This document shows, piece by piece, positions 3,407 through 23,377 of a DNA stretch of 64,000 nucleotides; the stretch's first letter is position 1, and the number at the start of each line of letters is the position of its first letter. Source of the stretch: Bacteroidia bacterium. GTDB lineage: Bacteria; Bacteroidota; Bacteroidia; UKL13-3. The DNA is taken from the NCBI GenBank assembly GCA_019695215.1, contig JAIBAK010000007.1:1149-65148 (forward strand), in the 5' to 3' direction. The notes below the pieces were generated by a model, which worked only from the letters and a program-made list of their open reading frames with translations, made no database searches and had not been told where the DNA came from. A program made the translations under genes and the position numbers.

Positions 3407-3969
3407 CTTGTATTAGTAATTATTCTACCAATTTGTTTAAATCTAGTGTTAGAAGTGCCACTACAAAAAATCTGAATCTCCACCTTTGATACATTATCAA
3501 CAATAAACTCATTACTCTGTTCAACCTCAGATTGTGTAATATTAGTAATTGTAAAGCCCCCTGCCCATCCGCTTCTTGGTTTCTGTGTTATTATACCACG
3601 AGAAAACTGTGATCTAACATTATCAGCCCGATTCTGTGATAAATTAACTCGCCTTAATAAATCTGCTAGCCCTTCCGGTGTTTCATAATCAATAGTTGCA
3701 GAAAGAACCATTTTACTCGTTATATAAACAGCATCTTCACTAAGGATAAGGGAATTGAGCGTGTTCAGACCTGCCAGTTGAGTCTCATTAAGAATAGCAC
3801 TCCAATTTGGAAAATTTATAGACGCTATTGGCAAGGGGTCAAGGGGTCTTGTCAAAAAATTTCCATCCCTATTTTCTGGTGCTATCCCAAAATCAGCCTT
3901 AAAGCTAGAGAGCCAATCTTCTGATAACCTTCCCCCTTTTGCCCACGGATTTTTAAATTCGAATGCCAT
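3400..3969 (-). CDS. Effector-like protein E1. It has the conserved N-terminus MAFEFKNPWAKGG shared with E2 and E3, followed by a unique C-terminal region of unknown function.
   Basis: Its N-terminal 12 aa and the junction with the upstream gene (stop, 2 nt, ATG) are conserved with the genes at 8268-8831 and 9797-10324. No signal peptide. Confidence 0.6.
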   Translation of the reverse strand: MAFEFKNPWAKGGRLSEDWLSSFKADFGIAPENRDGNFLTRPLDPLPIASINFPNWSAILNETQLAGLNTLNSLILSEDAVYITSKMVLSATIDYETPEGLADLLRRVNLSQNRADNVRSQFSRGIITQKPRSGWAGGFTITNITQSEVEQSNEFIVDNVSKVEIQIFCSGTSNTRFKQIGRIITNTRW

Positions 3970-3971
3970 AA

Positions 3972-5654
3972 CTATGCGGGATTTGAGGTTGGATTACAAT
4001 TACACCCGCTTTGAGGCACATCGCAACAATCAGTGAATACCTTTTTGTATAAGGTGGCCTTTTCAGTTGCATCGGTAAGCCCTTCTATTATATCAATAGC
4101 TTGTTGTTTAGCTACGTTTTCAAGATTAGCCTGCACAACAGCTGCATCCTGTAACTTGAGGTTGAAGCAATCCAAAGCCTCGCCCTGTCCCAGCAAAGCA
4201 TCAACAATTACTGAGTCAGTAGGTAACACGCGGCTTTCTACACTTTTTATTATACCATTAACTGTAATCCCCTCAGCCGTCATAGAAAGTCCTGTGTTTT
4301 TACGGAAGTAATCTTCAGTAAATTTCACACTACCTGTAGCGGAATCGTAAACATTCTCCGTTCTTTTTTCATAAAAGGTTTGCCTGGTTCCGGTGTAATC
4401 ATATACACTGTAATATTGGTCAACTATATCCTTAAAAACGTTGTCGGCATCTGTGGTGTTATTGAAAATACTTTTAAGTAAGGCTAATAATCCATCAACT
4501 TTAACTACTTGTTTAGTTTCTTCATACCCATTGGTATAAACAAATGAAACATCATCCAGATAAGTTATTGTAATGAGTTCCTGATTGAGTTGACGAAAAA
4601 CAAAATTGAGTACCCGACTTTTGTTTATATTTTCCAATATCCTAACAATACTGGTTTCGGTAGAGGTGGTTTCTGAGGTAGAGGTCTCTGTATTGATATC
4701 AAGTTTTCGGGATACCACTGATTTCTGAACCTGCTTTGATATTGCATTTGCCAATAATTTAATGTTCTCAGCTCGCAGCCCATTCATTGTAACTCCATTG
4801 GAGGAGCTACTCGAAAAGGAAGCTGCTCCTTTGCCACCGAACAATGGTATATTTAAGCCTGAACCGCTCTGTGAAGCCATATTATATCCCCCTGACTCTG
4901 TATGACTTTGAAGGCTGTCAATCTGAAGCATCTTTTCAAGCTCCTGGGTACTATCATTTGTTAAAGAATCAATAACATTCTGATAGTCTTTTTTGCTTTG
5001 GGTTGTTTGCTTATAACTCTTAATACTGATGGTGGTTTTCTCGCCCGGCAGCAATGTAAAAGTCTTAACAGTTTCTCCCGCACCGTAATCTCCAAGGTAA
5101 GTATTTACTCGATAATGCTCTATTACTGTAAGTCTTGGAACTGCACTAGCTGGTTGTTGCCTGAATTCAATTTTTTGATTGCCCATAATATCCACAACTG
5201 TTACAGGCATTCCATAAAGAGATTGAACTGCAATGCTACTTACAGCTTGTCCGGCAATAGTATAATCAGCAACCGGACTTGAAGTAGGGGCTGATTCAAA
5301 ACCCACCAAACTTGCAAGTGAATACTGTGGCGCAGCACTTACTGTTGGAGTTTCCTCTTCTGAATTTACATTTACAATATTGGGTGTGCCTACAGCTATA
5401 AAGTTATTTGCCATACGCGCGGTAATAGTTGAAGCATCCAGTCCGGCAACTATATCATAGTAGTTACCGCTAGGGGGCGAATCAAAACCTGCACCAGTTT
5501 TAAAATAGCTGCTGTTCACATCTAAGGGAATGTAAGCATTGGCAACAAACCCATTTGTTTGCGGAATGTTGTAATCAAGTTTGGGTGTTGAACCTGTTCC
5601 CCAATCGGTCATTGGATCTTTGTTGATGCAGCTTGATGGTGTTGTTTCTGGCAT
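3972..5654 (-). CDS. Hypothetical 560-aa protein. No signal peptide, Ser/Thr-rich, with a Cys-rich C-terminus ...LYKKVFTDCCDVPQSGCNCNPTSNPA.
   Basis: Long ORF with coding-like composition. Its last ~33 codons are duplicated in the 51-aa fusion ORFs at 8834-8989 and 10327-10482. Confidence 0.6.
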   Translation of the reverse strand: MPETTPSSCINKDPMTDWGTGSTPKLDYNIPQTNGFVANAYIPLDVNSSYFKTGAGFDSPPSGNYYDIVAGLDASTITARMANNFIAVGTPNIVNVNSEEETPTVSAAPQYSLASLVGFESAPTSSPVADYTIAGQAVSSIAVQSLYGMPVTVVDIMGNQKIEFRQQPASAVPRLTVIEHYRVNTYLGDYGAGETVKTFTLLPGEKTTISIKSYKQTTQSKKDYQNVIDSLTNDSTQELEKMLQIDSLQSHTESGGYNMASQSGSGLNIPLFGGKGAASFSSSSSNGVTMNGLRAENIKLLANAISKQVQKSVVSRKLDINTETSTSETTSTETSIVRILENINKSRVLNFVFRQLNQELITITYLDDVSFVYTNGYEETKQVVKVDGLLALLKSIFNNTTDADNVFKDIVDQYYSVYDYTGTRQTFYEKRTENVYDSATGSVKFTEDYFRKNTGLSMTAEGITVNGIIKSVESRVLPTDSVIVDALLGQGEALDCFNLKLQDAAVVQANLENVAKQQAIDIIEGLTDATEKATLYKKVFTDCCDVPQSGCNCNPTSNPA

Positions 5655-16101: not shown

Positions 16102-16734
16102 ATGAATTTAAAATTCCGTTACGAAGGTACATTACCACCGATAAAATTATTAATAAAAGGCAAAATGCCAAAAAATATCATTTTGTTAGCCCTGTTACTT
16201 AGTGCCGGGTGGATGAGTTGCAAAAGTCCTGCGCAAAAATTTGCCACCGAAACCACTCAATTAGACAGCATTCGCAAGCAATTAAACACCATGAAAGTGT
16301 GGTTTATGGTAGATGAACGAAAAGTGAGTAAACGGTTTGACCACCTGCAGCAACAGGACAGCCTTATTCAATTAACCAACCTGGCCCAAAGGCTGCCAGA
16401 AGATTTAGGACTGGCAATTGAAGAATTCAGAGCCATCCCTGAAATCTATAAAAACTACCTGAACCTTTTTAAACAGCAGCAACAGCAACTCGATTCGCTT
16501 GTGCAAAGCACGGATAGCTTACAAAACCTGTTGTACAGCGAAACCATTGGACGAAGAAAATTCAGGGAATTGTTTGGGGCGCATCAGTTAGCTGTAAACC
16601 TCCTGCAACAGCAAGTTGAAGCCACCGTAAAAAAAACCATAGAGGTAGAACCCACGTATAAGCGCATTCAGCCTCATATCGACTCGCTGGAGCGCTTTTC
16701 GGTTACGCCTGGGCAGTTGGCCCCCCGAAAGTAA
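16102..16734 (+). CDS. Hypothetical lipoprotein or secreted coiled-coil protein, Gln-rich
   Basis: Signal peptide with a Cys (LLSAGWMSC), then Q-rich heptad-like sequence. Confidence 0.45.
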   Translation: MNLKFRYEGTLPPIKLLIKGKMPKNIILLALLLSAGWMSCKSPAQKFATETTQLDSIRKQLNTMKVWFMVDERKVSKRFDHLQQQDSLIQLTNLAQRLPEDLGLAIEEFRAIPEIYKNYLNLFKQQQQQLDSLVQSTDSLQNLLYSETIGRRKFRELFGAHQLAVNLLQQQVEATVKKTIEVEPTYKRIQPHIDSLERFSVTPGQLAPRK

Positions 16735-17017
16735 GCGGAAGCGGAATATCCTCCTGCACCTTAATGGTACCAAAATTCTCCTCAAACTTGATGATATTAT
16801 CACTTAGGGCCATTAACAGGCGCTTGGCATGCATGGGGGTTAATAAAACCCTTGATTTAACTTTTGCCTTCGGAACTCCCGGCATAATGCGCACAAAGTC
16901 TATTACGAACTCGCTGTTTGAGTGAGTAATTATAGCCAGGTTAGAATAAGTTCCCTCGGCTATCTCTTCCGATAACTCAATATTGAGCTGATTCTGATTT
17001 TCGTTGTTGTTATCCAT
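16703..17017 (-). CDS. DUF3467-like small protein
   Basis: AEGTYSNLAIITHSNSEFVIDFVRIMPG and KSRVLLTPMHAKRLLMALSDNI is a conserved small-protein pattern. Confidence 0.5.
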   Translation of the reverse strand: MDNNNENQNQLNIELSEEIAEGTYSNLAIITHSNSEFVIDFVRIMPGVPKAKVKSRVLLTPMHAKRLLMALSDNIIKFEENFGTIKVQEDIPLPLTFGGPTAQA

Positions 17018-17100
17018 AATACAAAAGTAGCCTTTTTTTAGTTTGGTTACATATTCATGATAACGCGAGCATCATTGTTCGGAATAAGTATTAAACTGGC

Positions 17101-17157
17101 ATCTTGCCTGCATTGGTAAGCAGGATGCTTACGAATAGTAAACACGAGGTCGGGGCC
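17101..17157 (+). repeat. Left copy of a ~57-nt direct repeat flanking the ATPase/partner module. It contains a perfect 7-bp hairpin, GTAAGCA-GGA-TGCTTAC.
   Basis: ATCTTGCCTGCATTGGTAAGCAGGATGCTTACGAATAGTAAACACGAGGTCGGGGCC shares about 80% identity with 18882-18937. Confidence 0.8.
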
Positions 17158-17223
17158 CCGTGTTATCATATTTCCTTACTTGCGAAGGATCCAAATACAT
17201 ACAGTGATGAGTATTTGATAGGT

Positions 17224-17715
17224 TTATGGAAATTCTTTGATGAGTTGATCTATGATTTGCTTCAATTCCTTTATTTCCGAATCAATTTGCAAAAGTGAAT
17301 TTAGATATGCTTTAAGATGAAAATTTACTGAGGCATCTTGGCGTTTGCAAACATCTTTGTATGCAGAATAATCGTTAGGCAAACCAAATTCTCCAGTACT
17401 AATGTTATGAATGAGCCCTTCATCGTATGTCCATTTTTCAAAAATTGGATGAATAATTACAAACCGTTTTGATTGACCCATTCTTCGAATTTCAAGTGAC
17501 CCAATTCGCTTGTAGAACTGGTAATCCTCTTTTAATCTGTTTGGAGCTTGTTTATCTTTATCAATTAGAGCTATCCCAATTGAGTTATTATATCCAGGTG
17601 AATCAAGCGCTTTCAAAATATTTCCTACCCCTTCCTTGTGGTTTGCCTTTCTAAACCCTAGGACAGTAGTCAATGCAGTATTAGCATAACATTCTGGTAA
17701 TATCCTTAATTCCAT
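17224..17715 (-). CDS. Small partner protein of the ATPase, possibly a minimal TOPRIM-like fold
   Basis: Its start overlaps the ATPase stop (ATGA). An early Glu (LRILPECYA) is followed later by a hydrophobic strand and DxD (IGIALIDKDK), the order seen in TOPRIM/OLD-C/RloB-like partners. Confidence 0.5.
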   Translation of the reverse strand: MELRILPECYANTALTTVLGFRKANHKEGVGNILKALDSPGYNNSIGIALIDKDKQAPNRLKEDYQFYKRIGSLEIRRMGQSKRFVIIHPIFEKWTYDEGLIHNISTGEFGLPNDYSAYKDVCKRQDASVNFHLKAYLNSLLQIDSEIKELKQIIDQLIKEFP

Positions 17716-18791
17716 TAGTCAACAAATGCTTCATAGTTAATAAAAACGTCAGTCCCATAATTAAGCATTTCACCAATTTGCTTTTTAGTTAATTCCTTTA
17801 CTTCAGTTTGATAGTCTTTATACTTAGCAACAAATACTGCGCAATCTTTATAATCACAATGTTCAACCAAAGTACTTAATAGATAAGGACTATGCGTTGC
17901 AATAAAAAACTGATTAGATTCTGAATCAATCATTTCTCTAGCAATCCTATTAATATAAGGCGGGAAGCTATGGGCTTCCGGTTCCTCAAAAAGTAAAACA
18001 GAATCCTTATTAGATTTTATTGCGGACAGATAAAAAATTATTCTTCGCAAAGTATCAGCAATAAATTTGTATTCATATTTGTAAGATATTCCATCAACTC
18101 TTTTCTGTATTTCAAAAATATTTTCCTTTTGATCAATAAGGAATTCAAGCCCATACTCATCGAAAAACGAAGCAATCTCAGATCTTAGCTTTTTACTCTT
18201 AGTAAGTATCGTTAACAAATTATCTCCATCTGGTGTATTTAAAAAACTCGAGAAACTGTTCTCAAATGATTTTAGACGCTCATTAAATACATACTTTTTT
18301 ATTACCGTTTTTATTGTATGCGTATCCCTTGTTAAATTCAGGCTTCCATCAAAGGCAAGTTGTGAACCAGTAAATGGATAATTAACTATATCTAATCCAT
18401 TCTTACTTTCATTATATTGAGATAAAAATTTATCCCCTGATTTCTTGATATAGTTTTCATATAACAGCTCCATAAAATCAATATCCCCGGTGTACCAATC
18501 ATAACTATTAGAATTTGCCCTTTGACCAATAAAAGTTGCAATCAAATTTGTAAATATCTTTAGTGGTTTTGAGTCGTCATTATCATAGAACAATTGAAAA
18601 GGCTTATCAAACCTAATTATATCCTTTATTTGCCCATGACGTGAAAGTAAAGAAAGCGCTTCCAAGATATTACTTTTACCAACATTTGGCTTCCCAACAA
18701 ATACGTTTATTCGCTTGCATTTAATATCGATCTGCTTGACCGATTTGAAGTTTTCGATCTTAAGATAATGAATGTGCTTTTGAGCTACCAT
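17715..18791 (-). CDS. AAA_21/ABC-type ATPase (OLD/PARIS AriA/Septu PtuA-like N-terminal ATPase family)
   Basis: Walker A GKPNVGKSNILEAL, Walker B/D-loop LLFEEPEAHSFP, H-loop IATHSPYLL. Confidence 0.75.
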   Translation of the reverse strand: MVAQKHIHYLKIENFKSVKQIDIKCKRINVFVGKPNVGKSNILEALSLLSRHGQIKDIIRFDKPFQLFYDNDDSKPLKIFTNLIATFIGQRANSNSYDWYTGDIDFMELLYENYIKKSGDKFLSQYNESKNGLDIVNYPFTGSQLAFDGSLNLTRDTHTIKTVIKKYVFNERLKSFENSFSSFLNTPDGDNLLTILTKSKKLRSEIASFFDEYGLEFLIDQKENIFEIQKRVDGISYKYEYKFIADTLRRIIFYLSAIKSNKDSVLLFEEPEAHSFPPYINRIAREMIDSESNQFFIATHSPYLLSTLVEHCDYKDCAVFVAKYKDYQTEVKELTKKQIGEMLNYGTDVFINYEAFVD

Positions 18792-18881
18792 ACATCAAAA
18801 GTACAAAGAAATATTAATATTCAATAGGACTCTTTACCCGCATAACGTGAGCCTAATTGACTGTGATAAGCATAAACAGGC

Positions 18882-18937
18882 ATCTTTCCTGTGCAGGTAA
18901 GCAAGATGCTTACGAAAATAATTACGAGGCCGGTGCC
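18882..18937 (+). repeat. Right copy of the ~57-nt direct repeat flanking the ATPase/partner module
   Basis: ATCTTTCCTGTGCAGGTAAGCAAGATGCTTACGAAAATAATTACGAGGCCGGTGCC, with the same internal hairpin as the left copy. Confidence 0.8.
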
Positions 18938-18956
18938 ATTGGTAAGTTGCGTGTGG

Positions 18957-19009
18957 ACATCCCCCCTGCCCCCTTCTCCTATGCTGCAAGCCTGCGCTGC
19001 AAGGGGGAC
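18957..19009. repeat. Third, diverged copy of the GC-rich hairpin repeat (CATCCCCCCTGCCCCCTTCTCC...GCTGCAAGGGGGAC)
   Basis: Shares both arms with the tandem copies at 1229-1362. Confidence 0.65.
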
Positions 19010-19010
19010 T

Positions 19011-19050
19011 TTAAAACAAAACAGCCCGACAACTTGCATTGTCGGGCTGT
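19011..19050 (-). terminator. Rho-independent terminator downstream of rpoC
   Basis: CAGCCCGACAA-TGCAAG-TTGTCGGGCTG hairpin followed on the minus strand by TTTTGTTTTAA. Confidence 0.75.
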
Positions 19051-19072
19051 TTCAGGTATAGCTCAAGCTTTA

Positions 19073-22000
19073 TTAGTTGGCTTTGGCTGTTTCCATGGCT
19101 TCCTGTTTAGAGGCCATGAGTGATTCGTACTCTTCGCGCGAACCTACCACTAATTTATCGTAGGCGCGGTTACCGGTACCGGCAGGAATGAGGTGACCAA
19201 CGATCACATTTTCCTTCAGACCTAATAACTCATCTACTTTACCATTGATGGCGGCTTCGTTAAGCACCTTGGTAGTTTCCTGGAACGAGGCAGCACTCAT
19301 AAAGCTGTGTGTACCCAACGATGCACGGGTAATACCCTGTATCATGGCACCGGCTGTGGCAGGAACCGCATCGCGCACTTCAACCAGTTTCTGGTCTTTG
19401 CGTTTCAGCATCGAGTTCTCGTCACGCAGTTTGCGCACACTCACTATTTGTCCTGCTTTCAGGTTTTGTGAATCCCCTGCATCCGTCACTACTTTCTTAT
19501 CGTAAATCCAGTCGTTTTCTTCGATAAAGTCGAATTTATCGGCTGCTTCACCTTCAAGGAAACGGGTATCTCCCGGATCTTCGATTTCTACCTTCTGCAT
19601 CATTTGGCGCACAATCACCTCAATATGTTTATCGCTGATTTTTACACCCTGCAAACGGTAAACTTCCTGAATTCCGTTGGTAATATACCGCTGTACAGAA
19701 AGCGGACCTTCAATACGCAAAATATCCTGAGGACTGATAGCACCATCAGATAATGGAGTACCTGCTTTTACGAAATCGTTTTCCTGAACAAGAATGTGTT
19801 TTGAAAGCGAAACAAGGTATTTTTTCACCTGACCATCGCGTGATTCAATAATGATTTCACGATTACCACGCTTGATACCACCGAATGAAACTACCCCGTC
19901 AATCTCGGTAACCACAGCAGGGTTAGACGGATTACGTGCTTCGAACAATTCGGTAACGCGGGGTAAACCACCGGTAATGTCTCGTGTTTTTCCAATTGTT
20001 CTCGGAATCTTCACCAGAATTTGTCCGGCAACCACGGCCTCTTTATCCTCGGCAGCAAGGTGAGCTCCTACAGGAAGGTTGTACTCTTTAAGCACCTCCC
20101 CTTTTTTATCAACGATTTGGATAGAAGCGATGCGTGTTTTATCACGACTCTCAATAATTACTTTTTCCTTGTGGCCGGTTTGTTCGTCACTCTCCTCGCG
20201 GAAGGTGATGCTCTCAATAATATTGGAGAACTGAACTTTACCTGCAAATTCAGAAAGAATCACCGCATTGTACGGATCCCATGAACAAAGCACATCGCCT
20301 TTGGTCACTTTTTGTCCGTCTTTCACCATCAGGTGTGCTCCGTATGGAATATTCACGGTGATGATGACTGCACGTGTTTTCTCGTCAAGAATTTTCACTT
20401 CACCCTGACGTCCCAATACAATTTGTATTTCACCGTCCTCCGATTTATAGGCAACACTTCGCACTTCTTCAAACTCCAGAATACCGCCAAACTTAGCAGT
20501 GAGTTGCGACTCGGCAGCAATATTGGATGCAGTACCACCCACGTGGAAGGTACGGAGTGTAAGCTGTGTACCCGGCTCACCAATTGACTGCGCTGCTATT
20601 ACACCCACGGCTTCTCCATCCTGCACCATGCGGCCGGTAGAGAGGTTTCGTCCGTAACATTTAGCGCAGATACCAAATTTGGTTTCGCAGGTTAATGCCG
20701 AACGAATTTCCATTGATTCAATAGCTGAATTTTCAATTTTATCAGCAATGTCTTCGGTAATTTCTTCGCCCGATTTAACAAGTAATTCTCCGGTTATCGG
20801 ATCGTACGTATCGTGCAGCGAAACTCTTCCTAATACACGCTCATATAAACTTTCAACTACTTCTTCATTATCTTTCAGGGCGGAGATTGGAATACCGCGA
20901 AGGGTTCCGCAATCTACTTCCGAAACAACAACGTCCTGAGCCACGTCATGCAACCTACGGGTAAGGTAACCCGCATCTGCCGTTTTCAAAGCTGTATCCG
21001 CAAGACCCTTACGGGCACCGTGCGTAGAGATAAAATACTCGAGTACCGAAAGCCCTTCTTTAAAGTTGGAAAGAATCGGATTCTCGATAATCTCACCGGT
21101 ACCACCGCTCAGGTTTTTCTGAGGCTTGGCCATCAATCCCCTCATACCTCCCAGCTGACGAATCTGTTCTTTAGAACCACGCGCCCCTGAGTCAAGCATC
21201 ATGTAAATAGGATTGAACCCTTGTCTGTCGGAAGATATTTGCTTTAACAGTGTATCTGAAATACGCGAGTTAACACGGGTCCAGATATCAATTACCTGAT
21301 TGTAGCGTTCGTTGTTGGTGATGAAACCATTGTTGTAGTTACTCCATATTTCTTCTACTTCCTGTTGTGCTTCGCCAATGAATTTTAATTTTTCATCAGG
21401 CACACGCACATCTGAAAGGTTGAATGAAAGACCTCCTTTAAAGGCATAGTGGTAACCTAATTCTTTAATATCATCAAGGAACCTGGCTGTAACAGCCGTA
21501 CCAAACCGTTTCACGATTCCGCCAATAATATCGCGCAGGTTTTTCTTGGTTAACGTTTCGTTAATGAAACCATGTCCTTTTGGAACAACCTGATTAAATA
21601 TTACGCGGCCTACAGTGGTTTCGAAAAGTTTGTTTTCAATTTCACCTTTCTCATTCAGCACATCAACTTTTACTTTGATGAATGCATGTAAAGCAGCTCT
21701 GCGCTCGTTGAAAGCAATAATTACTTCCTCGGGCGAATAGAAACGCAACCCTTCACCTAAAACTTTTTCTGTTTCGGTGCTCTTACGTCCTTTGGTTATG
21801 TAATACAAACCAAGCACCATGTCCTGCGAAGGAACAGTGATAGGAGTACCATTAGCCGGGTTGAGTACGTTGTGCGGTGCCAGCATCAGCATTTGAGCTT
21901 CAAGAATAGCCGCGTTACCCAGCGGTACGTGAACCGCCATCTGGTCACCGTCAAAGTCAGCGTTAAAACCTGTACACACCAAAGGGTGCAACTGAATGGC

Positions 22001-23377
22001 TTTTCCTTCAATCAGCTTAGGCTGGAAGGCCTGAATACCCAACCTGTGGAGTGTAGGAGCACGGTTAAGCAATACAGGGTGACCTTTCAGAATATTTTCG
22101 AGGATATCCCATATTACGGCTTCTTTACGGTCAACTAATTTCTTAGCCGACTTCACCGTTTTTACAATACCTCTTTCGAGTAGTTTACGAATGATAAATG
22201 GTTTGAACAACTCGGCAGCCATTCCTTTAGGAATACCGCACTCGTGTAATTTAAGGGTTGGCCCCACTACAATTACCGAACGACCTGAATAGTCAACCCG
22301 TTTACCCAATAAGTTTTGACGGAAACGTCCTTGTTTACCTTTAAGCATATCGCTCAAAGATTTTAACGGGCGGTTACCTTCGGTTTTCACCGCACTCACT
22401 CTTCTGGTATTATCCAAAAGCGAGTCAACGGCTTCCTGAAGCATCCGTTTTTCGTTACGTAAAATTACCTCAGGTGCTTTAATCTCAATCAAACGCTTTA
22501 AACGGTTGTTACGGATAATCACCCTGCGGTAAAGATCGTTCAAATCGGACGTGGCAAAACGGCCACCTTCCAATGGAACTAACGGACGTAACTCAGGCGG
22601 AATAACCGGAAGAATTTTGATTACCATCCACTCGGGGCGGTTTTCAGCTTTCTCGTTAGCCGAACGGAAACTTTCAATTACCTTAAGGCGTTTTAACGCT
22701 TCGGTTTTACGCTGCTGCGAAGTTTCGTTGGCAGCCTGGTGACGCAAACTGAAAGAAAGGTCGTCAAGTTTTGTTCGCGATAATAAATCCCACAATGCAT
22801 CGCCACCCATTTTGGCAACGAATTTATTTGGGTCTGTATCTTCGAGGTACTGATTTTCTTTTGGTAATGAATCGAGAATATCCAAATACTCTTCTTCGGT
22901 TAATAAGTCGAGGTAATTGGTTCCGTCCTGTGCTTTAATGCCCGGCTGAATTACGATATAGCGTTCGTAGTAAATCACCATATCCAGCTTTTTGGTAGGA
23001 ACACCCAGCAGGTAACCTATTTTATTGGGCAATGAACGGAAGTACCAGATATGCGCAACAGGAACTACCAGATTGATATGTCCCATACGCTCTCTGCGCA
23101 CTTTTTTCTCAGTAACCTCTACCCCGCAACGATCGCACACAATGCCTTTGTAACGGATGCGTTTGTATTTACCGCAATGGCATTCAAAATCCTTTACAGG
23201 ACCAAAAATGCGCTCGCAGAACAAACCACCCATTTCAGGTTTATATGAACGGTAGTTGATGGTTTCGGATTTGGTAACCTCACCATACGATCTTTGCAGA
23301 ATCGTTTCAGGAGAAGCAAGACTAATCTTAATCTTGGTGAAGTTGCTTTTTAATTTTATATCTTTTTTAAATGACAT
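19073..23377 (-). CDS. rpoC: DNA-directed RNA polymerase subunit beta prime
   Basis: 1434 aa; [12 protein letters not shown] catalytic motif; Zn-finger Cys cluster near the N-terminus. Confidence 0.98.

Follow-up and report, generated by a model that had tools for sequence, protein, structure and literature searches.

A putative defence operon of an ABC ATPase and a minimal OLD-type Toprim protein in a repeat-bounded slot beside rpoC in a Bacteroidia bacterium

The analysed DNA, called the window here, is a stretch of 64,000 nucleotides from a Bacteroidia bacterium (contig JAIBAK010000007.1). It carries a pair of overlapping genes between rpoC and a DUF3467 gene, and one copy of a repeat, named element E, lies on either side of the pair. 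The features of the locus are as follows:

16703..17017, minus strand: DUF3467 gene (Pfam PF11950 at 1e-32), the downstream border of the slot
17059..17168, minus strand: R1, the downstream copy of element E (nhmmer 2.8e-26), with a hairpin at 17116-17132 and terminal inverted ends GATAACACG...CGCGTTATC
17224..17715, minus strand: partner gene, 163 aa, encoding a minimal Toprim domain of the OLD type and then a short helical tail
17715..18791, minus strand: ATPase gene, 358 aa, ABC-type, SMC/Rad50/OLD clade
18796..18803, minus strand: candidate promoter box TACTTTTG, 4 nt upstream of the ATPase ATG, fitting the -7 box TAnnTTTG
18841..18937, minus strand: R2, the upstream copy of element E (nhmmer with the E profile, 1.7e-24), with a hairpin at 18897-18913
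19019..19052, minus strand: rpoC intrinsic terminator, whose hairpin arms are 14 nt long and perfectly complementary (16 pairs in the RNA fold), and then a U tract

Both reading frames named in a preliminary description of this DNA were confirmed with the lengths given there, and the motifs quoted in it were all found (GKPNVGKSNILEAL, LLFEEPEAHSFP, IATHSPYLL, LRILPECYA and IGIALIDKDK). The overlap of the two genes was also real, but the junction is TAATG, with 1 nt in common, and not ATGA. The GC content of the cassette is 30–34%, compared with 43–49% in the flanks, which is a foreign composition. The module contains no mobility gene. The pair stands alone, and methylase or restriction-modification genes were not found alongside it. 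Because the rpoC terminator precedes the pair, its transcription requires a separate promoter. TAnnTTTG is the published -7 box consensus of Bacteroidetes, and from this consensus TACTTTTG is proposed as a candidate promoter for the pair. Read from the sequence, the same box stands at the same spacing before the DUF3467 gene, at 17022-17029. A sigma-70 promoter scan performed no better than on shuffled sequences.

The ATPase matched the Pfam families AAA_15 (8.9e-17) and AAA_21 (5.6e-14). Its Walker A (G33-S40), Walker B with the catalytic pair E269-E270, and H-loop (H300) are intact, as expected of the AAA_15/AAA_21 ATPase of an OLD-like system. The domain matches and the intact invariant motifs confirmed the earlier assignment to the OLD/AriA/PtuA type of ABC ATPase.

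The partner had been described as TOPRIM-like, and this reading held. Its top structural matches are OLD nucleases, with RecR absent from the best 60, so that the Toprim fold of the associated nuclease in OLD-like systems is present. Its relatives came from a full phmmer search, as a k-mer-based search returned the partner alone. The candidate catalytic residues are E8, N12, D52, D54, E93 and K124. Among 134 relatives, E8 was conserved in 133, D or E at position 12 in 128, D52 in 133, D54 in 131, E or D at position 93 in all 134, and K or R at position 124 in 116. The conserved residues follow the order of the catalytic set of Burkholderia pseudomallei (Bp) OLD, and their placement relative to secondary structure fits an OLD-type set. 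By sequence they would represent the Toprim glutamate after β1, the DxD, the second-metal glutamate and the lysine of the OLD-like class.

The window partner itself matched no PADLOC, Pfam or NCBIfam profile, including AbiLii, DUF4276, RloB and Pfam Toprim_OLD. The partner-family profile had no relevant match among PDB sequences, and Foldseek of the partner against the PDB returned nothing below an E-value of 0.1. Weak profile matches of the relatives fell mostly on partners of ATPase systems, namely AbiLii, mad4, HEC-01B, PDC-M38B, PDC-M03B, DUF4276 and RloB. AbiLii was matched by only 2 of the 134 relatives (at 0.0094), DUF4276 by three (best 0.0077), RloB by two (0.034) and mad4 by two (0.012). 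For DUF4276 and RloB, these sequence matches indicate distant kinship only. The partner family comprises at least 184 clusters at 50% identity, mostly from Bacteroidota and also from an archaeal pleolipovirus.

The order of an ABC ATPase gene first and a small separate Toprim gene second is shared with AbiL (Lactococcus AbiLi and AbiLii) and with the PADLOC candidates HEC-01, PDC-M38 and PDC-M03. However, ATPase scores of 1e-15 to 1e-17 correspond to a distant superfamily relationship, and the partner matches none of their profiles and has its own family signature (P-E-C-Y-x-D-T ... H26 ... I-D-x-D-K ... H-P-x-x-E-x-W). The AbiLi profile aligned with the ATPase end to end (residues 7-339 against 2-329 of 340; 7.5e-17), but the score was low, and with no AbiLii match in the partner the pair falls outside AbiL. 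PARIS (AriA/AriB; class 4 OLD-like) also consists of a separate ABC ATPase and a Toprim effector. Its ATPase scaffold keeps the nuclease sequestered in the absence of a phage trigger (PMC11464382), and by analogy PARIS may be the best mechanistic template for the pair. Identity with PARIS was rejected. The PARIS effector is a DUF4435 protein (PF14491) of about 35 kDa, whereas the partner has 163 aa and no Pfam DUF4435 match, and DUF4435 was outside the 25 most-matched Pfam families of the 134 relatives. No strong AriA profile match of the ATPase was found. The OLD/PARIS-like defence cassette of the preliminary description is therefore kept as an OLD-like ATPase/Toprim pair with a presumed defence role, and the PARIS assignment is dropped.

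In OLD classes 1 and 2 (P2 Old, Thermus scotoductus OLD, Bp OLD, GajA) the ATPase and Toprim domains are fused, whereas here they are encoded by two genes. The C-terminal region of Bp OLD is about 40 residues longer than the Toprim and helical region of the partner. DUF4276/Mad4 (MADS3-4) and RloB (RloAB) are small Toprim partners of AAA_21 ATPases with a similar size class and partnership, but all matches here were far under the curated cutoffs. MAD3 (NF047739), the best NCBIfam match of the ATPase, reached 43 bits against a cutoff of 420, and no methylase adjoins the pair. For the DUF4276 and RloB families of Pfam, the window partner had no match and its relatives matched at E-values of 0.0077–0.034. 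The pair is an ATPase/mini-Toprim module that was acquired by horizontal transfer. It represents a variant within the OLD/AbiL/PARIS/HEC-01 group and probably a so far unlisted relative of the anti-phage systems of the AbiL/PARIS type.

The pair was also found in six other Bacteroidota loci (L011, L012, L014, L180, L181 and L182), strictly conserved and overlapping. A further copy is present as gp15/gp16 in Geoglobus ahangari pleomorphic virus 1, an archaeal pleolipovirus (hhalign probability 99.8%). In the virus a RelE/ParE toxin gene follows about 2.5 kb downstream of the pair. The GC content of the pair is 3–18 points under that of each flank in the six loci and the window. No flanking direct repeats or element E were found around the six other chromosomal copies, none of the six contexts is a recognisable defence island, and core genes adjoin the syntenic pair in three genomes. 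A tblastn search of plasmid and phage collections with the partner gave no homologue, and in IMG/VR the ATPase alignment found a single weak match.

The direct repeats that had been reported around the pair are real, with 78.9% identity (45/57) over the segments first quoted. Their extent had been understated. The full repeats are about 100 nt long (17059-17157 and 18841-18937) and 77% identical over 97 columns, and weaker similarity continues as far as a TACTTTTG box, which precedes the ATG of each downstream gene by 4 nt. Exactly two occurrences of the 21-nt core GGTAAGCANGATGCTTACGAA were found in the 64 kb, a number reached in 0 of 100 shuffles. The 7-bp hairpin ascribed to each repeat was present in both copies. 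Predicted folds and a five-copy alignment describe E as four short hairpins, and the short inverted ends of R1 were read directly from the sequence. In the related locus L016, E is an imperfect palindrome overall (self-reverse-complement z 3.8–4.6, matched by 0 of 300 shuffles), whereas the window copies are not palindromic overall. No further copy was found by nhmmer in the window or in the scanned loci, a set to which L187-L189 do not belong. An Rfam scan of 16600-19300 with E-values up to 10 returned no family for the repeat.

Integron cassettes and CALINs likewise consist of short cargo between direct repeats of about 100 nt that form hairpins, and their empty site keeps one copy. However, attC sites have R'/R'' cores and one long bulged or imperfect stem, and integron arrays differ from the single cassette per locus seen here. 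The five E copies carry neither core (GTTRRRY or RYYYAAC) and form four small hairpins, and no integrase was noticed.

The DUF3467 gene is syntenic with rpoC in most of 160 related loci. None of the 80+ related loci has the pair at this site. An empty site with one repeat copy was sought in relatives and was found in L017, where 283 nt separate rpoC from DUF3467. In L016, two E copies enclose a gene of 308 aa on the opposite strand, which is low in GC and unrelated to the pair. We rejected the possibility that E moves together with the L016 cargo, as the 59% homologue of that cargo, P0273 in L183, lacks E. Unrelated genes also fill the rpoC-DUF3467 gap in several Bacteroidota lineages (L059, L049 and L100), and no flanking repeats were found in the other occupied gaps. 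The pair thus sits in a lineage-specific variable slot. The repeats had been taken as a signature of the module. L016 has the same flanks around a different cargo and the six other chromosomal copies of the pair lack E, so the repeats do not travel with the pair; they belong to the site. Two Logan contigs (L185 and L186; 1182 nt with 29-nt terminal overlaps) were considered as a circular excision product and rejected as uninformative, because the overlap is the very stretch in which the two E copies are identical.

The window locus has a chimeric appearance: its left part is like L017 and its right part like L016. The 5′ flank of R2 is homologous to the single-copy locus L017; R2 resembles the L017 copy at both ends, and R1 has an L016-type 5′ end. 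Within genomes, the E copies are 77% and 83% identical, while the orthologous copies are 72% (R2 and the upstream copy of L016) and 76.5% (R1 and the downstream copy of L016) identical. As the E copies in the window are only 77% identical, the insertion is old or the copies have different origins.

We consider it fairly likely that the region is a horizontally acquired operon of an ATPase and an OLD-type Toprim nuclease, with an abortive defence role like that of AbiL, PARIS and OLD, in an E-bounded variable slot. In this model, a compact ABC ATPase would be translationally coupled to a minimal Toprim nuclease of 163 aa. By analogy with AbiL, PARIS and OLD, ATPase dimers or oligomers may hold or gate the nuclease. 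A phage-derived cue would change the state of the ATPase and release or activate the nuclease, which would then cut nucleic acid by two-metal catalysis and abort the infection. The slot, between the rpoC terminator and DUF3467, would be bounded in the genus by a hairpin-rich E of about 100 nt that may originally have been palindromic, and cargo entering at or beside E would leave one copy on either side. Several observations count against this model: position 12 of the window partner is N, in contrast to D or E in 128 of 134 relatives; HEC-01, the nearest catalogued analogue, gave no protection in tests (bioRxiv 10.1101/2024.01.29.577857); the six other chromosomal copies have no defence-island context, and three of them are syntenic beside core genes; the E copies in the window have only 77% identity, and no recombinase was identified; and the partner lacks a plasmid or phage homologue by tblastn, with the single weak IMG/VR match for the ATPase.

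For the repeats, another explanation with an appreciable but smaller chance requires no dedicated machinery. E would be an old tandem duplication or a low-copy MITE-like sequence that serves as portable homology, and RecA-dependent exchange would use pairs of E copies or the conserved rpoC and DUF3467 flanks, much like horizontal transfer hotspots flanked by core genes. This explanation agrees with the unrelated genes in the gap of the three other lineages and with the chimeric appearance of the locus. A MITE-like origin agrees with the short inverted ends of E, and the between-species divergence of E (67–76% identity) looks compatible with neutral drift at 80–92% coding identity. On the other hand, a single ancient duplication of E is disfavoured, unless gene conversion occurred, because the orthologous copies are no closer than those within a genome. 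Plain allelic replacement also leaves the bracketing of both cargos by E unexplained.

It is unlikely that E is the recognition site of a site- or structure-specific recombinase acting in trans, with cargo plus one E inserted or excised as a cassette at a resident E, integron-like but without a classical attC. Two unrelated cargos at one site, each between two directly oriented E copies, and the single copy at the empty site speak for it, as do the hairpins, the palindrome of L016, the mixed ends of R1 and R2, and the absence of flanking repeats from the gap genes of other lineages. Against it, no recombinase was identified at the locus, the attC cores are absent, the copies within a genome are only 77–83% identical, and homologues of either cargo occur elsewhere without E. 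In addition, the window copies are not palindromic overall and only three genomes are informative. The preliminary proposal of a mobile, site-specifically inserted cassette went too far in this respect, as neither a recombinase nor recent mobility was demonstrated. A bolder idea, to which we give little credence, is that E is both the target and the recombination site of a new cassette-capture mechanism in this Bacteroidia lineage. An integrase in trans or a palindrome-directed process would duplicate the hairpin array of about 100 nt around captured foreign AT-rich genes directly downstream of the rpoBC operon, among them a minimal ATPase/Toprim immune module that an archaeal virus also carries.

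The pair could also be a selfish toxin-antitoxin-like addiction module, with the Toprim protein as toxin and the ATPase as neutraliser, kept by post-segregational killing and not for phage protection, but we regard this as improbable. PARIS, formally a type II toxin-antitoxin system with a toxic AriB and a neutralising AriA (PMC13064643), provides the precedent. The small size, tight coupling, AT-richness and patchy distribution of the module also speak for it, as do the single insertions between housekeeping genes outside defence islands and the position of the viral copy near a RelE/ParE toxin gene. However, defence and toxin-antitoxin behaviour are not exclusive, and AbiL, PARIS and OLD, the closest characterised analogues, are all anti-phage. 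Long-term synteny in L011, L012 and L014 at 38–56% identity also suggests selection beyond addiction. A housekeeping repair or recombination pair like RecF (ABC ATPase) and RecR (Toprim) is very improbable, since the RecF match covers only 57 N-terminal residues (34 bits against a cutoff of 172), RecR is outside the top 60 structural matches of the partner (OLD nucleases being best), and conservation extends to all acidic residues of the two-metal set and to the lysine. In addition, the two closest relatives lack the pair at this site, its AT content exceeds that of the flanks, its sequence changes much faster than that of DnaA, and a virus carries it as well.

If the pair is immune in function, as the defence operon model proposes, it would add a compact family to the ABC-ATPase/Toprim class. 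Current defence finders miss the pair because the partner matches none of their profiles. At 163 aa, the partner is near the smallest OLD-type nuclease core and would be a convenient model for the gating of a Toprim nuclease by an ABC ATPase. The E-bounded slot beside rpoC, with one allele that is empty and two that carry different cargo, may serve as a small natural system in which to study how gene capture is promoted by short palindromic intergenic elements.

The preliminary description of a gene pair between rpoC and the DUF3467 gene recorded a real observation, and all the peptide motifs quoted in it were found in the two ORFs. The pair is an uncatalogued form of the ABC ATPase plus Toprim systems. 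The rpoC–DUF3467 gap (the slot) showed the following layout:

23377..19073, minus strand, rpoC, the upstream border of the slot
19052-19019, minus strand, strong intrinsic terminator downstream of rpoC
18791..17715, minus strand, ATPase ORF (358 aa)
17715..17224, minus strand, partner ORF (163 aa)
17017..16703, minus strand, DUF3467 gene, downstream of the pair

The ATPase and partner ORFs have one base in common (GAC TAA TGG), and the junction is thus a 1-nt TAATG overlap, not the ATGA first described. The GC content of the cassette was 30–34%, against 43–49% on either side. The box TACTTTTG lies on the minus strand at 18796-18803 and 17022-17029, exactly 4 nt ahead of the ATG start codons of the ATPase and DUF3467 genes, respectively, and it fits the Bacteroidetes -7 box TAnnTTTG. 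In the loci of two related species, L016 (GCA_964535575.1) and L017, TACCTTTG-N4-ATG was found ahead of DUF3467. The spacing of the window boxes suggests that transcripts starting there may be leaderless or near-leaderless.

The ATPase carries the Pfam domains AAA_15 and AAA_21. Its PADLOC scores (1e-15 to 1e-17) were at superfamily level only, with the ATPase-Toprim, HEC-01A, AbiLi, Old, GajA, AriA and NsnB models, and every NCBIfam match was far under its cutoff. Walker A residues G33, P35, N36, G38, K39 and S40, as well as E269-E270-P271-E272 and T299-H300, were invariant in 40 ATPase homologues. Based on these domains, scores and motifs, the ATPase is by sequence a compact protein of the ABC clade that is common in defence systems, not specially close to any one of them.

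The partner had no Pfam, PADLOC or NCBIfam match and no meaningful PHROG match, and a word-indexed homologue search returned only the partner itself. An exhaustive phmmer search (E up to 0.001) recovered 184 representative clusters, nearly all of 150–190 aa, and 134 of these were aligned.

Conserved partner residues (clusters of 134 in the alignment)
E8, 133
C9, 128
D/E12, 128 (N in the window protein)
H26, 120
D52, 133
D54, 131
P90, 120
E/D93, 134
K/R124, 116

The AF2 model of the partner was confident (pLDDT 95.8, pTM 0.90). In this model E8 ends strand 1, D52-x-D54 ends the strand at 47-52, E93 starts the helix that follows the final core strand, and the helical tail contains K124. The conserved residues follow the same order as the two-metal site and catalytic lysine of Bp OLD, E400/E404/D455/D457/E508/K562 (PMC6755086), in a shorter chain. 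Weak profile matches of family members were concentrated on proteins that act as partners in ATPase systems, namely AbiLii (2 members), mad4 (2), DUF4276 (3), RloB (2), HEC-01B (2 models), PDC-M38B and PDC-M03B (4.5e-5); DUF4276 and RloB have lately been recognised as Toprim domains (PMC12065111). A Foldseek search gave no PDB match below E 0.1, so the relationship to known Toprim proteins is distant. We conclude that the partner is a predicted minimal OLD-type Toprim nuclease; the Toprim-like partner proposed earlier was borne out by the residue order, the model and the weak profile matches. The Cys right after the candidate catalytic Glu (position 9, 128/134) and His26 (120/134) were nearly invariant in the family alignment. 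We know of no counterpart of these residues in OLD, DUF4276 or RloB, and they may serve as an additional metal ligand or work together in catalysis.

Six further chromosomal pair loci were sampled through ATPase homologues (42–59% identity). In 6/6, a partner-family member of 160–172 aa was located immediately downstream of the ATPase, overlapping its gene by 1–8 nt or starting within 10 nt after it. These pairs were solitary, with housekeeping genes on either side, in four contexts: methylmalonyl-CoA mutase or MeaB before and 5'-nucleotidase after the pair (with an extra 133-aa ORF after the pair in locus L011); alcohol dehydrogenase and a CBM protein; a dehydrogenase E1 component and a MORN protein; and trmB and mutS. 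The GC content of the pair was below each flank by 3–18 points in every further locus. The closest homologous pairs, in L011, L012 and L014 (5001-6600), are syntenic at one conserved position, the one between methylmalonyl-CoA mutase/MeaB and the 5'-nucleotidase, with dnaA about 2.4 kb downstream. Their ATPases were 51–56% and their partners 38–51% identical, against 90–96% for DnaA, which suggests either that the pairs have long resided there and evolve fast, or that their alleles have been replaced repeatedly.

Geoglobus ahangari pleomorphic virus 1, an archaeal pleolipovirus (BK065157.1), also carries the module (3962-5403), whose range thus reaches from Bacteria to an archaeal virus. Its gp15 was 39.6% identical to the window ATPase over 97% of its length (3e-65), gp16 matched the partner family profile (hhalign probability 99.8%, E 2.6e-29), and the two genes overlap by 1 nt, as in the window. 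The viral pair is flanked by two wHTH regulator genes, with a RelE/ParE toxin gene about 2.5 kb downstream. No partner relatives were detectable by tblastn in plasmid and phage collections, and the IMG/VR search gave a single weak ATPase match. The tblastn negatives, the chromosomal pairs and the viral copy together show that the module is found mainly on chromosomes and occasionally in viruses, and that it is accessory and evolves fast. On Parabacteroides distasonis plasmid NZ_OY725749.1, a 158-aa "AAA family ATPase" gene (4049-4525) without a partner gene matched the C-terminal half of the ATPase family (39% identity) and is probably a remnant.

[quoted passage not shown] Judged from membership in this class, an anti-phage role of the pair is most likely: the ATPase would sense a phage cue and gate the two-metal Toprim nuclease, which would abort infection. 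This reading is favoured by the intact catalytic residues of both proteins, the tight translational coupling, the fast evolution, the AT-rich foreign composition, the patchy distribution and the presence in a virus. Against it, no defence-island context surrounds the pairs, and HEC-01 was negative in a defence test (bioRxiv 10.1101/2024.01.29.577857), which we count against a defence role. The pair may also have a toxin–antitoxin-like selfish role, which would overlap with defence. A repair role resembling that of RecF/RecR is unlikely.

The direct repeats reported around the pair are real, and the quoted segments were 78.9% identical. The 21-nt core of the repeats has exactly two occurrences in 64 kb, a count reached in 0/100 shuffles. 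Alignment and profile search extended the repeat to an element, E, of about 100 nt (17059-17157, downstream copy R1, and 18841-18937, upstream copy R2; 77% identical over 97 columns), beyond which weaker similarity runs on as far as the TACTTTTG box. A profile search placed E at the slot alone: the window and L016 have two copies each, and L017 has one. No copy was found in the rest of the window, in 21 kb from the L016 genome or in the other loci scanned. Four short hairpins make up E, and they show a few compensatory changes (for instance, GTAAGCA/TGCTTAC in the window against GAAAGCA/TGCTTTC in L016). The whole L016 element is an imperfect palindrome (z 3.8–4.6 against shuffles), a symmetry lost in the window copies. 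E had no match in Rfam and contained no attC core sites.

DUF3467 protein scans covered 80 loci from species-representative genomes and 80 from metagenomes, and 0/160 encoded the ATPase or the partner. Two of them were the close relatives L016 and L017, whose rpoC 3' ends were 92% and 86% identical to the window in nucleotides and 99.7% and 98% in protein. The predicted empty site with one repeat copy was found in L017: its spacer is 283 nt with a single E, the left flank aligning upstream of R2 and the right flank downstream of R1. In L016, a sister species, the 1.39-kb gap holds an unrelated 308-aa gene on the opposite strand (33–35% GC), with no Pfam match and, by eye, an apparent signal-peptide-like N-terminus. 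This cargo is bracketed by two direct E copies (2675-2782 and 3828-3936, 83% identical), an arrangement also present in L184; its sole homologue found (59% identical, L183) is without E. In L100, whose DUF3467 was 98% identical to that of the window, the upstream sequence is different (1-640, an unknown ORF) and has no E copy. In other Bacteroidota the gap encodes a GT2 glycosyltransferase and an HTH_3 protein in L059 (2265-3899) and an Smr/DUF2027 protein in L049 (2992-3939). No flanking repeats were found in L059, L049 or L100, or around the six other chromosomal copies of the pair. Since E brackets the L016 cargo, and those six pairs and the cargo homologue lack it, the repeats belong to the site in this genus, and the earlier view of them as a mark of the module's own mobility is not supported.

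These alleles show that foreign DNA was inserted at the slot and that E was duplicated around two independent cargos, with one allele having a single E. The E-bounded slot is an unexplained, modestly documented curiosity. Identity between E copies was 77% (window) and 83% (L016) within genomes and 67–76.5% between genomes; positional orthologues were not favoured. Every between-genome pair was thus slightly less alike than either within-genome pair, which is more readily explained by independent duplications or by gene conversion than by one ancient tandem duplication. R2 is like the L017 element at both ends, and R1 has an L016-type 5' end, which would fit the insertion of "cargo plus an incoming E" beside the resident E, or else divergent alleles that recombined. 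Plain homology-driven exchange through E and the core genes on either side seems to us slightly likelier than insertion of cargo by a putative dedicated E-specific recombinase. The cassette was present in all recovered contigs of the window species (about fifteen sequencing runs or assemblies) and thus gives no sign of current mobility. In two 1182-nt Logan contigs (L185, L186), the L016 cargo has at its ends a direct overlap of 29 nt, equal to the stretch identical in both E copies. Assembly breaking within this stretch accounts for such contigs, and a circular form would look alike; we therefore do not take them as evidence of excision.

Between the rpoC terminator and R2 (18938-19018, minus strand) lies a G/C-run hairpin (CCCCCUUGCAGC ... 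GGGGG) that includes a 13-nt tandem repeat (18978-19003); this segment is present in L017 and missing from L016. At the other border, a 210-aa coiled-coil-like ORF (16102-16734, plus strand) converges with the DUF3467 gene (16703-17017, minus strand), their 3' ends overlapping by 32 nt, and L016 keeps this arrangement.
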